The notes: generated from the sequence alone by a model not told the origin. Shown: positions 4,893 through 56,003, numbered from the stretch's first letter. The stretch: DNA of 64,000 nt from Alphaproteobacteria bacterium (GCA_965227515.1 CBDDFZ010000001.1:3872001-3936000), one strand, 5' to 3'. Translations and numbers: made by a program.

Positions 4893-5366
4893 ATGAAGAC
4901 CAACACCCTTAAGGCGCTGACCACGGCGTTGTTTGCTACCGCGGCGATCGCAACCTCGACCACCGCGAGCCAGGCCGAAGTTCTGCCGGAGTTCGAGGGC
5001 TACCTCGAGGCTGGCCAGGATTGCCTGCCCTATCAGTATGACTCTTATGCGGCCGCCGTCGTCGACAACGACGCAGCCGGCCTGATGGACTTCATCAGCT
5101 CGCAGGGTCCGTCCTGCACCATGCTGCGGGCGACCGCCACCGTGCTGCTGTGCGACATCAGCCCGGCTGACTGCGAGCCGGCCGGCAGGCCGCCGATCGA
5201 CATCATCGAGCTCGATCGCCCGCCGTTCATGGGCGAGGAAAAGCCGGACAACGACGACCCGAACGGTCCCGATGACGGCCGCGATGGCCCGGGCCTGTCC
5301 AATGTCGACGTGCCGGATGCGCCGTCGGACGACAATGGCCGCACCGGTGCCACTGGCCCCACTTGA
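4893..5366 (+). CDS. Secreted hypothetical protein with four Cys and an Asp/Pro/Gly-rich tail
   Basis: AGGAG RBS; signal peptide ending ASQA; host-like codon usage; downstream hairpin. Confidence 0.75.
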   Translation: MKTNTLKALTTALFATAAIATSTTASQAEVLPEFEGYLEAGQDCLPYQYDSYAAAVVDNDAAGLMDFISSQGPSCTMLRATATVLLCDISPADCEPAGRPPIDIIELDRPPFMGEEKPDNDDPNGPDDGRDGPGLSNVDVPDAPSDDNGRTGATGPT

Positions 5367-25802: not shown

Positions 25803-25892
25803 CGTCATGCCCGCACTTGTTGCGGGCATCCACGAATTGGCGGCTTAGCCGCCAGGAAGACGTGGATGGTCGGGACAAGCCCGACCATGACG
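25803..25892. repeat. CGTC-tagged REP doublet A
   Basis: CGTC-ATGCCCGCA-CTTGT-TGCGGGCAT-CCACG, spacer hairpin, then inverted CGTC-ATGGTCGGG-CTTGT-CCCGACCAT-CCACG. Confidence 0.9.
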
Positions 25893-27945: not shown

Positions 27946-28122
27946 TGTCGTCCTCGCCCTTGTGGCGAGGACCCATCGCGGTGCGCGGCGGCGGAGCGTC
28001 CCAAGTACATGCCCATTGCATTTGCATGCACTATGAGGCGATCCCATAAACAGCGATAGACATGGGTCTAGGCAGAGTCCTTGGCCACAAATGGACCCTC
28101 GCCACAAGGGCGAGGGCGACAA
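27945..28122. repeat. CGTC/TGTC-tagged REP doublet B (long spacer)
   Basis: TGTC-GTCCTCGCC-CTTGT-GGCGAGGAC-CCAT and inverted TGTC-GCCCTCGCC-CTTGT-GGCGAGGGT-CCAT. Confidence 0.85.
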
Positions 28123-30723: not shown

Positions 30724-30963
30724 GGTTTCGGTCCCCCGATGATGTTGTTGTGGTCCGTCATCGGGCTAGCAATCGTTGTGCCGGCCCAGGCGGAACCTTG
30801 TCGCGTGCACGGATAGTTGACCACAGCGGGCCGGGTCGCCGCAATGGCGGATAAGCTGCCCGTCCCGCTCCCTTCACGGTGCTGTCAACTCCGGCCAGCC
30901 GGTATGCGCTTGTCTCGCGGCCACGTGGCGCTATCCTCCGTTGCCAGACGATCGGAGCAGTAC

Positions 30964-31401
30964 ATGGACCTTTTGCGTGTCCGCCACTGGCAGGCCCTTG
31001 TTGTCGCCGCGCTTCTTGCGATGGTGCCGATGGCGGCCAACGCGGGCGTGGCGGTGTATGCCGGCACCTATGCCGGCACCTATCGCGCCCAGGTGGATAC
31101 GGTTGAGCGCGGCTCCTGGTGCGCGGTCGTCGATACCGACGGCAGCATTACCGGCATGGTCCATTCCGATGTGACCGGCCGGCAATATCCGTTCAACGGC
31201 ACGGTCACGCGCGACGGCGGCATGGCGATGTCGACCGGGCAGACCGGCGCCGGCAGCATCTTCGCCGGCATGATCGAGGACGACATGAGCGTCTCCGGCA
31301 CCTGGCGCAACGTCTCGGCGCCCGAGCGATTCAACGGCACCTTCGAGGGCGCGCAGGAGCCGCCGGGCACCAACCCGCTCTGCGGCGAACCGGGGGCTTA
31401 G
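30964..31401 (+). CDS. Secreted hypothetical beta-rich protein
   Basis: GGAG RBS, signal peptide ending ANA, host-like codon usage, two Cys. Confidence 0.65.
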   Translation: MDLLRVRHWQALVVAALLAMVPMAANAGVAVYAGTYAGTYRAQVDTVERGSWCAVVDTDGSITGMVHSDVTGRQYPFNGTVTRDGGMAMSTGQTGAGSIFAGMIEDDMSVSGTWRNVSAPERFNGTFEGAQEPPGTNPLCGEPGA

Positions 31402-31417
31402 GCGCGCCAATAACTGC

Positions 31418-31794
31418 CGTCGCCCTCGCACTTGTTGCGAGGGCCCATCGACATGCCAGACTGACTGTCGATGAGCTGTTACGTCTACATCCTTGCGAGC
31501 CGACCGTACGGCACGCTCTATGTTGGCATGACCAACGATCTCATACGTCGTGTCTGGGAGCATCGTGGAGGTCTTGTCGCCGGCTTCACTCGCCAAAACA
31601 ACATCAAACATCTTGTCTATTTCGAGGTTCTCGATACGGCCCCCGATGCAATTCGGCGCGAGAAGAGACTGAAGCAATATCGGAGGGACTGGAAGATCAA
31701 CTTGATCGAGCGCGACAACCCTCACTGGGAGGACCTTTGGCCGACTATCGCGCGTTAGGCGAAATGGGCCCTCGCAACAAGTGCGAGGGCGACG
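31418..31794. mobile_element. Candidate element: GIY-YIG gene bracketed by perfect 31-bp CGTC-REP inverted repeats (locus C)
   Basis: 31418-31448 is the exact reverse complement of 31764-31794; mobility is inferred, not shown. Confidence 0.6.
31471..31758 (+). CDS. Stand-alone GIY-YIG nuclease family protein
   Basis: YVYILAS...TLYVGMTNDLIRRVWEH...AIRREKRLK...WKINLIE...NP.W.DL. Confidence 0.92.
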   Translation: MSCYVYILASRPYGTLYVGMTNDLIRRVWEHRGGLVAGFTRQNNIKHLVYFEVLDTAPDAIRREKRLKQYRRDWKINLIERDNPHWEDLWPTIAR

Positions 31795-31815
31795 AAAATA
31801 TAGGTGCGGGTCTCC

Positions 31816-32748
31816 CTACCCCCGTCGCCGCACCAGCGAGATACGCGGGTCGATGAACGGGGCCAGGAAATCGGCCAGCAGATTGCCGACCAGGATGGCG
31901 AGCGCCGCCACCAGCGTCACGCCCATGATGATCGGGATATCGATGCGCTGGATCGCCTGCCAGGCAAGCTGGCCGATGCCGGGCCAGCCGAACACGGTCT
32001 CCACCACCACCACGCCGCTCATGAAGATGCCGATGTCGAGCCCGATCATCGCGACGATGGGCAGGATCGCGTTCCTGAGCGCGTGCACGATCAGCACCCG
32101 GCGCGGGCTCGCCCCCTTGGCGACCGCGGTGCGGATGTAGTCGCGGCGCAGCACGTCGACCATCGACGAGCGCATCATCCGCGCGTACCAGCCGCCGCCC
32201 AGGATGCCGAGCGTCAGCGACGGCAGGATCATGCTCTCGAACGTGCCGTCGGCGCGCAGCGGCAACCAGCCAAGCGTCGCCGCGAAGACGAACAGCAGCA
32301 GGATGCCGACCACGAACTGCGGCGCCGACACACCGACGAAGGCGCCGACCATGACGACGCGGTCCAGCGCACGCCCACGATGGGCGGCGGCCAGAACGCC
32401 GGCCGGGATGCCAATCAGCAGTTCGCAGAAGATGCCGCCGGCCATCAGCAGCAGGGTCGCCGGCAGCCGGCTCATGATCAGCTCGGTGACCTCGGTGCGC
32501 TGCAGGTACGACCGGCCGAGGTCGCCCTGCACCAGATTGCCGAGATAGATCAGGTACTGCTCGACCAGGCCGCGGTCGAGGCCGAGCTGGCGGCGGATAG
32601 ACTCCACCGTGTCGGGCGGCGCGTTGCGGCCGGCGATCATCCGCGCCGGGTCGGCCGGGATCAGGTAGACCAGCAGGAATGTGATGATCGAGATGCCGAT
32701 CAGGATCAGCACCGCCTGCCCCAATCGCCGCGCCAGGAAGCCACCCAT
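31816..32748 (-). CDS. Peptide ABC permease (DppB/OppB-like)
   Basis: GDLGRS, DYIRTAVAKG and VVETVFGWPGIG. Confidence 0.92.
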   Translation of the reverse strand: MGGFLARRLGQAVLILIGISIITFLLVYLIPADPARMIAGRNAPPDTVESIRRQLGLDRGLVEQYLIYLGNLVQGDLGRSYLQRTEVTELIMSRLPATLLLMAGGIFCELLIGIPAGVLAAAHRGRALDRVVMVGAFVGVSAPQFVVGILLLFVFAATLGWLPLRADGTFESMILPSLTLGILGGGWYARMMRSSMVDVLRRDYIRTAVAKGASPRRVLIVHALRNAILPIVAMIGLDIGIFMSGVVVVETVFGWPGIGQLAWQAIQRIDIPIIMGVTLVAALAILVGNLLADFLAPFIDPRISLVRRRG

Positions 32749-33628: not shown

Positions 33629-33719
33629 CGTCATGCCCGCACTTGTTGCGGGCATCCACGCCTTATTGGCCGCTAAGGCGGCCACCTCGTGGATCCTCGG
33701 GACAAGCCCGAGGATGACG
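33629..33719. repeat. CGTC-tagged REP doublet D
   Basis: ATGCCCGCA arm, TGGCCGC hairpin spacer, inverted ATCCTCGGG arm. Confidence 0.9.
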
Positions 33720-36923: not shown

Positions 36924-38035
36924 GAAACAACGTCGCCCTCGCCCTTGTGGCTAGGGCCCATGGTCGTGACAGGCTCGGTCCGTCGACAAGTGGCCTCAAT
37001 GGCAGCTATGCGCTCAAGCCCTGCCCCGGAAGCTGATGATTCCACGTGCTGTACCGAACCACGGCCCACAAATGGGTCCTCGCCACAAGGGCGAGGACGA
37101 CAAATCTTCTTGTTCACCCAGCCCCAAATTTCATTGGCCAGCCGCGCCCGTGCGGCACGGTCCGGCATCAGGGTGTCCATCACCACCACATCGAGCCCGA
37201 GCGCCGCGATCTCGCTGGCGCGCTGGCGGTCCTGGCCGTCAATGACCATGGCGTCGATTAGCCCGTCGTAGAACCGCGCGACGCCAACCGCATCGCTGCC
37301 ATGGCCGGCGGCCCGCATCATCCGGTCGGACGGCCCCTTCAGCGATTGCCCGCCAACCAGCGGCGACACGGCGAAGCGAATCGCCTTCGACGCCTGTAGC
37401 GCCTCGCGGATGCCGGGCACGTCGATGATAGGTGCGATGCTGGCGATGGGGTTGGACGGCGCGATGCAGATGACGTCCGCCGCCGCGATGGCGTCCAGCG
37501 CCTCCGGCGTCGGCCGCGCCGCTTGCTGCCCCTCGACCCAGACGCGGCGGATCGCCGGCCCGCACTTCTCGCGCACGAAGAACTGCTGGAAGTCGAGCAC
37601 GCCGTCCGGCGTCTCGATCATCGTTGCCAGTGTATCGTCGGTGGGGAGCAGGATGCGCGCCTCTGCACCCAGCCGCGCCGCGATCTCCGCCGCGATCTCG
37701 GTCGGCCGCGCGCCCTGGTGGCGCCGCATGGTGCGGTGAATGTGGGTGGCGAAGTCGCGGTCGCCCAAATTCATCCAGGTCGGGCCGCCGAGAACGCCCA
37801 GCCGCTCCATCGTATCGAAGGTGTCGTCGCGATAGCCCCAGCCGCGCTCGTGATCCACCACGTCGGCAAGCGTGTAGGTGATGGTGTCGATATCGGGCGA
37901 GATCCACAGGCCATGCAGTTCGGTGTCGTCGGCCACGTTGCCGATCACCGTCAGCGCCGGCTGGCCCAGCACCTGGGCGAAGCCGTCGACCATCTTGGCG
38001 CCGCCGACCCCGCCGGCAAGGATCACGATGCTCAT
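36920..38035 (-). CDS. cofD: 2-phospho-L-lactate transferase (CofD/FbiA) with REP-derived C-terminal extension
   Basis: LAGGVGGAK, SPDIDT, LGDRD, FQQFFV, PSNP and KGP motifs. Confidence 0.92.
   Translation of the reverse strand: MSIVILAGGVGGAKMVDGFAQVLGQPALTVIGNVADDTELHGLWISPDIDTITYTLADVVDHERGWGYRDDTFDTMERLGVLGGPTWMNLGDRDFATHIHRTMRRHQGARPTEIAAEIAARLGAEARILLPTDDTLATMIETPDGVLDFQQFFVREKCGPAIRRVWVEGQQAARPTPEALDAIAAADVICIAPSNPIASIAPIIDVPGIREALQASKAIRFAVSPLVGGQSLKGPSDRMMRAAGHGSDAVGVARFYDGLIDAMVIDGQDRQRASEIAALGLDVVVMDTLMPDRAARARLANEIWGWVNKKICRPRPCGEDPFVGRGSVQHVESSASGAGLERIAAIEATCRRTEPVTTMGPSHKGEGDVVS
36931..37103. repeat. CGTC-tagged REP doublet E inside the cofD 3' end
   Basis: CGTC-GCCCTCGCC-CTTGT-GGCTAGGGC-CCAT and inverted TGTC-GTCCTCGCC-CTTGT-GGCGAGGAC-CCAT. 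Confidence 0.85.
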
Positions 38036-41646: not shown

Positions 41647-41751
41647 GTCAGGCCCGGGCCGGCCCACTACCAGGGGCCGAGTCCCGGGTATCCACGTCTT
41701 GGCAACGGCTGACGCAAGTCGTGGATGCGCGGATCAAGTCCGCGCATGACG
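41647..41751. repeat. CGTC-tagged REP doublet F (left arm degenerate, enlarged loop)
   Basis: Right arm CGTGG-ATGCGCGGA-TCAAG-TCCGCGCAT-GACG (41720-41751) is identical to the right arm of doublet G. Confidence 0.8.
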
Positions 41752-48522: not shown

Positions 48523-48608
48523 CGTCATGCCCGCACTTGTTGCGGGCATCCACGTCTTTCAGCAGCGGTGGCAAGTCGTGGATGCGCGGATCAAGTCCGC
48601 GCATGACG
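48523..48608. repeat. CGTC-tagged REP doublet G
   Basis: ATGCCCGCA arm and inverted ATGCGCGGA arm between convergent guaD and puuD. Confidence 0.9.
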
Positions 48609-51022: not shown

Positions 51023-51053
51023 CGTCATGCCCGCAACAAGTGCGGGCATGACG
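51023..51053. repeat. Collapsed single-hairpin CGTC REP (H)
   Basis: CGTC-ATGCCCGCA-ACAAG-TGCGGGCAT-GACG. Confidence 0.85.
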
Positions 51054-55912: not shown

Positions 55913-56003
55913 CGTCATCCTCGGGCTTGTCCCGAGGATCCACGAGGTGGCCGCTCATGCGGCCAAGGAGACGTGGATGCCCGCAACAAGTGCGGGCATG
56001 ACG
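55913..56003. repeat. CGTC-tagged REP doublet I (inverted near-copy of D)
   Basis: Reverse complement has the same two arms and TGGCCGC/GCGGCCA spacer stem as 33629-33719. Confidence 0.9.

Follow-up and report, generated by a model that had tools for sequence, protein, structure and literature searches.

According to our analysis, positions 31418 to 31794 of the window, by which we mean the whole 64-kb stretch of DNA that was analysed, probably hold an Ssn-type cassette, that is, a small single-domain GIY-YIG nuclease gene placed between two copies of its cognate CGTC-headed hairpin in a hairpin-rich region. The locus adds one more case to the known pairing of Ssn nucleases with hairpins, and its arms are a variant with a G-C closing pair. 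The pairing itself is real, family-wide and already published, and the idea that the nuclease drives the repeat family, which a sequence-only reading of the locus had put forward, is also raised in the available part of the Ssn paper (PMC11893778).

Ssn proteins were described by Chenal et al. (Nat Commun 2025; PMC11893778) as single-domain GIY-YIG nucleases of about 94 aa, whose genes are typically arranged as hairpin-gene-hairpin. In the part of that paper available to us, N. meningitidis SsnA is a 94-aa single-domain protein assigned to CDD cd10448 (GIY-YIG_unchar_3), which binds the CGTC-headed NTS hairpin as single-stranded DNA (ssDNA) only, in one strand orientation only and not as RNA, and cuts a few nucleotides upstream of the hairpin, again in one strand orientation only. 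Cutting is abolished by the Y6A, Y17A, and E64A mutations; binding depends most on the C directly following the palindrome, and cutting on the three bases that precede it. The same source shows a role of the Neisseria Ssn in natural transformation, reports that 42% of Ssn homologues are flanked on both sides by the degenerate SRM pattern, and in its Supplementary Data 4 flags an SsnA/cd10448 homologue in Kordiimonas lipolytica and Pelagibius litoralis. The former is the species of one of our homologous loci (L061) and the latter that of P0020, which is 65% identical to the window protein.

The CGTC-tagged REP superfamily was defined earlier by Di Nocera et al. (BMC Genomics 2013; PMC3733652), who state, in the portion of the article available, that these repeats predominate in Alphaproteobacteria, are intergenic, form frequent inverted dimers and "apparently lack[s] a dedicated transposase." The view of the sequence-only reading that CGTC REPs have no assigned enzyme agrees with that article and has been superseded by the Ssn paper. 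NTS/SRM and CGTC-tagged REPs are plainly the same kind of repeat, although the connection is seemingly not spelled out in PMC11893778, where neither "Nocera" nor "CGTC-tagged" occurs in the available text and reference list. Here the link is made explicit: the CGTC REPs left without a dedicated enzyme in 2013 are the repeats recognised by Ssn nucleases. In the open-access literature searched, we found no paper besides PMC11893778 joining GIY-YIG nucleases to REP-type hairpins and no later paper on Ssn mobility.

The gene encodes a stand-alone GIY-YIG protein with intact motifs, as had been claimed from the sequence alone. The 95-aa product matches the Pfam family GIY-YIG (PF01541) over residues 3 to 77 with an E value of 2.3e-11 and no other Pfam family, and in NCBIfam it has no family match. 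Residues Y6, Y17, R27, H31, E64, and N83 are all invariant in an alignment of 21 sequences, and in an 81-sequence alignment drawn from the best 80 of at least 598 matches Y17, R27, H31, E64, and N83 are each present in 81/81 sequences and Y6 in 80/81. The AlphaFold2 model is a compact single domain with a pLDDT of 94.5. Its best matches among solved structures are the UPF0213 proteins 1zg2 and 1ywl, followed by Slx1, HIGLE, and UvrC, all of them GIY-YIG proteins; identity to the UPF0213 and Slx1 matches is 18 to 32%. With 95 aa and no extra DNA-binding domain, the protein falls within the size range of the Ssn family (<150 aa). It carries neither the HUH motif nor the catalytic Tyr of a RAYT transposase, matching GIY-YIG alone, and the repeat heads are CGTC.

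The two arms of the cassette are hairpins of 31 nt each, 100% complementary to one another and separated by 315 nt, so that the exactly inverted arms and their tight spacing, proposed in the sequence-only reading, are confirmed. Each arm consists of the head CGTC, a 9-bp stem, the 5-nt loop CTTGT and the tail CCAT, with the heads pointing outward and the tails toward the gene; a gap of 22 nt separates the left arm from the ATG, and the right arm begins 5 nt past the stop codon. As ssDNA, each arm folds with −11.6 kcal/mol, and 0/200 shuffles fold as well. The whole unit spans 377 nt, compared with 355 to 524 nt for the 28 two-armed units found among homologues at the best 80 of at least 598 matched loci. 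With up to three mismatches, the 23-nt core of the arm occurs four times in the window and not once in each of 100 shuffles. The arms miss the published degenerate SRM pattern at one position, where they have G and the pattern requires W. Since their closing pair is G-C while the pattern asks for A/T and then a pyrimidine, a strict SRM scan would overlook them. The same G-type variant flanks homologues at nine other loci among the best 80 of at least 598.

Table 1. Coordinates of the nuclease gene, its hairpin arms, and the other CGTC-headed repeats in the window
Feature	Position	Strand	Basis
Left arm, CGTC-headed hairpin, type B, G-C closing pair, head away from gene	31418..31448	+	Inverted-repeat search, fold z −3.6
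22-nt leader, left arm to ATG	31449..31470	+	Sequence reading
ssn-like gene, predicted 95-aa single-domain GIY-YIG nuclease, with stop codon	31471..31758	+	ORF call, Pfam, alignment
Right arm, 31/31 identical to left arm when read on − strand, head away from gene	31764..31794	−	Fold z −4.7
Type-A doublet, CGTCAT...ATCCAC, 28-nt spacer	25803..25892	.	Motif scans
Type-B empty doublet, heads TGTC, 114-nt spacer	27946..28121 (27946-27976 +; 28091-28121 −)	.	Motif scans
Type-A doublet, both units match published SRM pattern	33629..33719	.	Motif scan
Type-B empty doublet, 110-nt spacer	36931..37102 (36931-36961 +; 37072-37102 −)	.	Motif scans
Type-A single unit	41721..41751	−	Motif scans
Type-A doublet, 24-nt spacer	48523..48608	.	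Motif scans
Type-A-like full 31-nt palindrome, CGTC head at both ends, no CCAC tail	51023..51053	.	Motif scans
Type-A doublet, both units match published SRM pattern	55913..56003	.	Motif scan

Motif scans of the 64 kb detected 16 CGTC-REP units with the loop CTTGT, 14 of which form seven inverted pairs (Table 1). Their heads are CGTC or TGTC and their tails CCAT or CCAC; together with the stem, the short loop, the many copies and the inverted dimers, these are the features by which CGTC-tagged REPs are recognised. Two types can be told apart. Type A (CGTCAT...ATCCAC) comprises 10 units, arranged as four inverted doublets with spacers of 24 to 29 nt, one single unit and one full palindrome, whereas the six units of type B ([C/T]GTCG[C/T]...CCCAT) pair up into three inverted doublets. 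Their spacers measure 114, 315, and 110 nt, and the gene lies in the second of these. All doublets share the heads-out, tails-in layout seen around the gene, which accordingly occupies the position of a doublet spacer, in line with the sequence-only reading. Stem differences between copies are paired, compensating changes, for instance between the unit at 27946 and the arms of the gene. An exact match to the published SRM pattern is found in six units, all of type A, a density that would correspond to about 94 per Mb were the window typical. Because type-A units outnumber type-B units (10 versus 6), the nuclease may not serve most of the repeats in the window. The spacer of the type-A doublet at 25803 (25834-25861) forms a short G+C-rich hairpin of its own, and as ssDNA this doublet adopts a three-way structure of −35 kcal/mol (z −7.0).

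To compare the arrangement across the family, a 21-sequence alignment was searched against genome contigs and the best 80 of at least 598 matches, with 52 to 63% identity, were retained; they are a sample, not a census, and are called the best-80 sample below. The loci closest to the window protein in this sample are mostly alphaproteobacterial. Hairpins were called within 150 nt by a strict rule (head [A/C/T]GTC, stem of at least 8 bp with at most one mismatch, loop of 3 to 8 nt, then C), and crude ORFs of the same loci, with immediate neighbours excluded, served as controls (n = 371). Since MAFFT put two hairpin loop classes in different registers, the rule-based scan was combined with a motif-free score in place of a covariance model.

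Under the strict rule, a head-out hairpin was found upstream of 42/79 homologues, downstream of 38/79 and on both sides of 27/79 in the best-80 sample, versus 10/371, 8/371, and 2/371 control ORFs, respectively (Fisher p about 2e-20 for both sides), and none of 63 small control ORFs was enclosed on both sides. A looser rule gave 44 loci with an upstream hairpin, 41 with a downstream one and 28 with both among the 80 loci, and when one locus per syntenic group was kept, both arms were present in 20/66 (best 80 of at least 598 in both cases). The motif-free inverted-repeat score between the two 150-nt flanks reached at least 18 in 35/79 homologues of this sample and in 1/371 controls, and the window unit scores 31. 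A histogram for the best-80 sample shows the hairpins concentrated at distances of up to 30 nt from the start and stop codons. The enrichment of flanking CGTC hairpins at homologues, anticipated by the sequence-only reading, is therefore borne out by these counts.

Such enclosure could in principle be fortuitous, as REPs accumulate in gaps, especially between convergent genes, and might happen to bracket a short gene. The window offers something to this explanation, as the unit is framed by two convergent genes, a + strand ORF with its stop at 31401 and an ABC permease gene on the − strand with its stop at 31816, and 12/16 REP units overlap no ORF by a crude ORF call; at least one of the ORFs overlapped by the other four (30931-31725, on the strand opposite ssn) looks spurious. 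It is, however, contradicted by the enclosure of 27/79 homologues (best 80 of at least 598) against 2/371 controls and 0/63 small ORFs, and by the 31/31 identity of the two arms, from which the remaining type-B units of the window differ at three or more positions, so that we regard a chance neighbourhood as exceedingly improbable.

The association is not uniform across the family. In the best-80 sample, 27/80 loci are without a hairpin within 150 nt under the strict rule, and inspection by eye shows longer or degenerate hairpins at many of them (e.g., Bradyrhizobium L017, L039, L050, and L071). The nearest downstream hairpin has a direct instead of an inverted orientation at some syntenic Bradyrhizobium loci. 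Among 25 pairs of equal-length arms in the same sample, 3 are identical, including those of the window unit, and 11 are at most one base apart. Homologues that are 54 to 60% identical (L078, L079, L041, and L059; best 80 of at least 598) are flanked by hairpins fitting the published Neisseria NTS consensus. Two further observations concern individual loci. A single contig of a Parcubacteria-group MAG (L051:2449-7354) holds three ssn paralogues within 5 kb, 52 to 59% identical to the window protein. In L012, L021, L023, L030, and L068 of the Bradyrhizobium group, conservation of the upstream arm continues for about 15 nt past the CCAG tail, with a CCAGTATCCCAGAGGCG-like sequence; this extension suggests that the element recognised or co-inherited there may be longer than the hairpin alone.

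A different explanation is that the hairpins act chiefly on the RNA or on transcription, as a leader hairpin, a 3′ stabiliser or a terminator of the gene, and are not nuclease substrates. The close fit of the arms around the gene, which is similarly tight in homologues of the best-80 sample, would suit such a role, and many REPs have been argued to act as RNA elements (PMC3733652, available part). Pairing of the start codon could also be envisaged, as an 11-nt inverted repeat with 91% complementarity (31443-31453/31466-31476) extends over both the left arm's tail and the ATG and could hide the start codon in the mRNA. On the other hand, no terminator-like T-run follows the right arm, 14 further hairpins of the window lie away from the gene, and SsnA binds the ssDNA form and not RNA according to the available part of PMC11893778. 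We consider it improbable that RNA-level control is the chief function of the hairpins, and such control would be compatible with an Ssn-type cassette. A scan of 31250-31950 found no promoter-like or terminator-like sites, and by eye no obvious Shine-Dalgarno-like sequence is seen upstream of the ssn ATG.

The genes around the cassette, all on the − strand, encode two ABC permeases, a family-5 solute-binding protein, an amidase, and a luciferase-like protein. The + strand ORF 30817-31401 encodes 145 aa from an internal ATG (30964), with a hydrophobic N-terminus and no Pfam family; it shares with the nuclease cassette a place inside this − strand ABC transporter cluster, with the permease genes on one side and the solute-binding-protein gene on the other. 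A free-standing GIY-YIG homing endonuclease, spreading by a double-strand break and its repair, would share the fold and the patchy distribution of the protein studied here. GIY-YIG homing enzymes carry a separate DNA-binding domain, which the 95-aa protein lacks, and no intron, intein or phage context was found in the neighbouring genes, which are ABC transporter and amidase genes. Given also the syntenic inheritance described below, we judge this origin very improbable.

The sequence-only reading had taken the 377-nt unit for an autonomous mobile element, with the GIY-YIG nuclease as its transposase and the empty doublets as its nonautonomous derivatives. Several observations are in keeping with this. 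The insertion sequence (IS)-like layout recurs family-wide, by the strict rule and by the motif-free score alike (27/79 and 35/79; best 80 of at least 598); the same sample covers many phyla, its nuclease tree departs from taxonomy, and the flanks are unrelated in 11 Ssn pairs of at least 75% identity. In the available part of PMC11893778, a homologue is reported in 137/169 genomes with more than 200 SRMs, and the Discussion describes the NTS-ssnA-NTS layout as IS-like and possibly a domesticated element. However, most of the tests run on the locus and its homologues speak against autonomy. No target-site duplication was detected at the window unit, and 23/28 units at the best 80 of at least 598 loci have no matching flank bases, the longest match in the rest being 4 nt. 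Nor are there several near-identical copies: blastn-short and tblastn found no second ssn copy in the 64-kb window, and the closest paralogue, apparently on the window's own contig, is 79% identical. The other two type-B doublets, compared by blastn-short and tblastn with the ssn unit and with each other, have nothing in common apart from the arms and about 6 nt. An origin of their 110- to 114-nt spacers by deletion within the gene was rejected, as the searches matched the arms alone, and this also counts against the proposed descent of the empty doublets from the gene unit.

The phylogenetic prediction of the sequence-only reading, that the nuclease tree tracks the arm sequence, did not hold up either. 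On the tree of the best-80 sample, the nine loci with G-type arms call for 7 changes, and shuffles give a value as low in 19/500 cases. The tree is weakly resolved, with 7/78 inner branches starred, and it reveals no clear co-phylogeny of nuclease and arm type. In the same sample, 22/80 loci fall into eight syntenic groups with matching flanking genes on both sides, inside which Ssn identity ranges from 54 to 96%; the cassette is therefore often inherited in place.

Vertical persistence is accompanied by occasional inversion or relocation. In a seven-member Bradyrhizobium-type syntenic group, the cassette of L023 (4941-5440) is inverted in place relative to both flanks when compared with L012:4935-5333, with the breakpoints of the alignment located within the hairpin arms. 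The available text of the Ssn paper (PMC11893778) makes no mention of cassette inversion and does not contain the string "synten." In a second Bradyrhizobium neighbourhood, the cassette of L039, L050 (4946-5342), and L071 lies between two segments, A and C, whereas in L017 it is found (4943-5340) between a segment D and a 1.9-kb stretch that separates it from C, in the opposite orientation. Such use of different intergenic sites and opposite orientations would be expected of a mobile element. At the A-C junction of L017 (8021-8182), a GTAG-headed inverted REP pair stands in the cassette's stead, so both REP superfamilies use the same gap. In this neighbourhood the cassette DNA is 72 to 73% identical and the flanks are 77 to 96% identical. 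An in-frame stop occurs in 2/80 genes of the best-80 sample, both syntenic and from Bradyrhizobium, L050 (codon 3; 5001-5009) and L071, which may be decaying copies or sequencing errors.

The chemistry points in the same direction as the comparisons. GIY-YIG enzymes hydrolyse DNA, and to our knowledge none is known to join strands. Moreover, as published cutting takes place in one strand orientation (PMC11893778, available part) and the heads of the cassette point outward, there would be one cut per strand, both outside the unit, with no excised strand and no fragment released. Taken as a whole, we find it unlikely that the unit is an autonomous element; instead of an active transposon, the comparisons favour a RAYT-like gene that stays in place for the most part and is now and then inverted or relocated.

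For the Ssn-type cassette, a mechanism can be proposed by analogy with SsnA. The hairpins would extrude once the DNA becomes single-stranded, e.g., during replication, repair or DNA uptake, and the nuclease would bind a hairpin in one strand orientation, reading the stem, the GTC just 5′ of it and the C just 3′. The strand would then be hydrolysed a few nucleotides 5′ of the head, which predicts a + strand cut immediately to the left of 31418 and a − strand cut immediately to the right of 31794. The same activity of the window protein on type-B hairpins, the position of its cut and its role in the cell are inferred from the studied homologues. That role is likely the control of ssDNA recombination and/or the upkeep of the repeat family, as would be the case for a domesticated RAYT. 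A bolder proposal makes the cassette the REPtron counterpart for the whole CGTC superfamily. Nicking of extruded ssDNA hairpins by the GIY-YIG enzyme would seed the copying of doublets, which host repair or template switching would finish; the cassette itself would now and then flip or relocate through the same events, as in the Bradyrhizobium loci, and each paralogue would keep its own subfamily, type B for the window gene and the more numerous type A for the 79% identical paralogue. We put this forward tentatively and hold it to be rather doubtful in this general form.

That so small a nuclease is paired with a hairpin repeat found genome-wide is of biological interest, and there is ongoing work to turn Ssn enzymes into tools that cut ssDNA specifically. 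The present locus adds a member with G-C closing-pair arms, overlooked by the published pattern, and the two hairpin subtypes that lie side by side in the window offer a natural test bed for specificity. Related loci add comparative evidence that inheritance in place is the rule for such cassettes, which are nevertheless able to invert at their arms and to settle at other intergenic sites.

Compared with the Ssn systems of Chenal et al. (2025), the locus has the same single-domain GIY-YIG protein of 94 to 95 aa, with Tyr6, Tyr17, and Glu64 at the mutated positions, and the same layout, in a hairpin-rich region, of a gene with inverted CGTC-headed hairpins on both sides; in these hairpins a C follows the palindrome and the tail is of the CCA type. 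It differs in that the window arms carry G-C where the published pattern requires A/T-Y, and the loop is CTTGT in the window but GNRA-like in the Neisseria NTS. Binding and cutting have been shown for homologues, whereas the window protein is known from its sequence, and its probable link to cd10448 comes indirectly, from the flagged species that hold its 54 to 65% identical relatives and from the canonical NTS hairpins beside relatives. The CGTC-tagged REPs of Di Nocera et al. (2013) share with the repeats of the window the CGTC head, the short palindromic stem, the loop of about 5 nt, the CCA tail, the inverted dimers and the intergenic location; the 2013 paper found no dedicated enzyme, whereas here, and in PMC11893778, a nuclease gene lies inside the doublet.

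Among the other GIY-YIG proteins, UPF0213 (1zg2 and 1ywl) and Slx1 are alike in fold and sequence, giving the best matches of the solved structures. Slx1 is a structure-specific nuclease of branched DNA that requires its partner Slx4, and we know of no association of UPF0213 proteins or Slx1 with hairpin repeats. In REPtrons, the gene flanked by GTAG REPs encodes a RAYT, an IS200/IS605-like HUH Y1 transposase. The cassette resembles these systems in having a single-copy-like gene between inverted REPs of a genome-filling family, in its vertical persistence and in the recognition of ssDNA hairpins, but it differs by the hydrolytic GIY-YIG chemistry as opposed to the covalent HUH/Tyr chemistry and by the CGTC instead of the GTAG head, and no strand-transfer activity is known for it. 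The IS200/IS605 elements likewise have subterminal hairpins that are recognised in ssDNA; in these elements, however, both ends are cut on the same strand and rejoined there, while the cleavable orientations in the window lie on opposite strands and the cassette does not occur in multiple identical copies.
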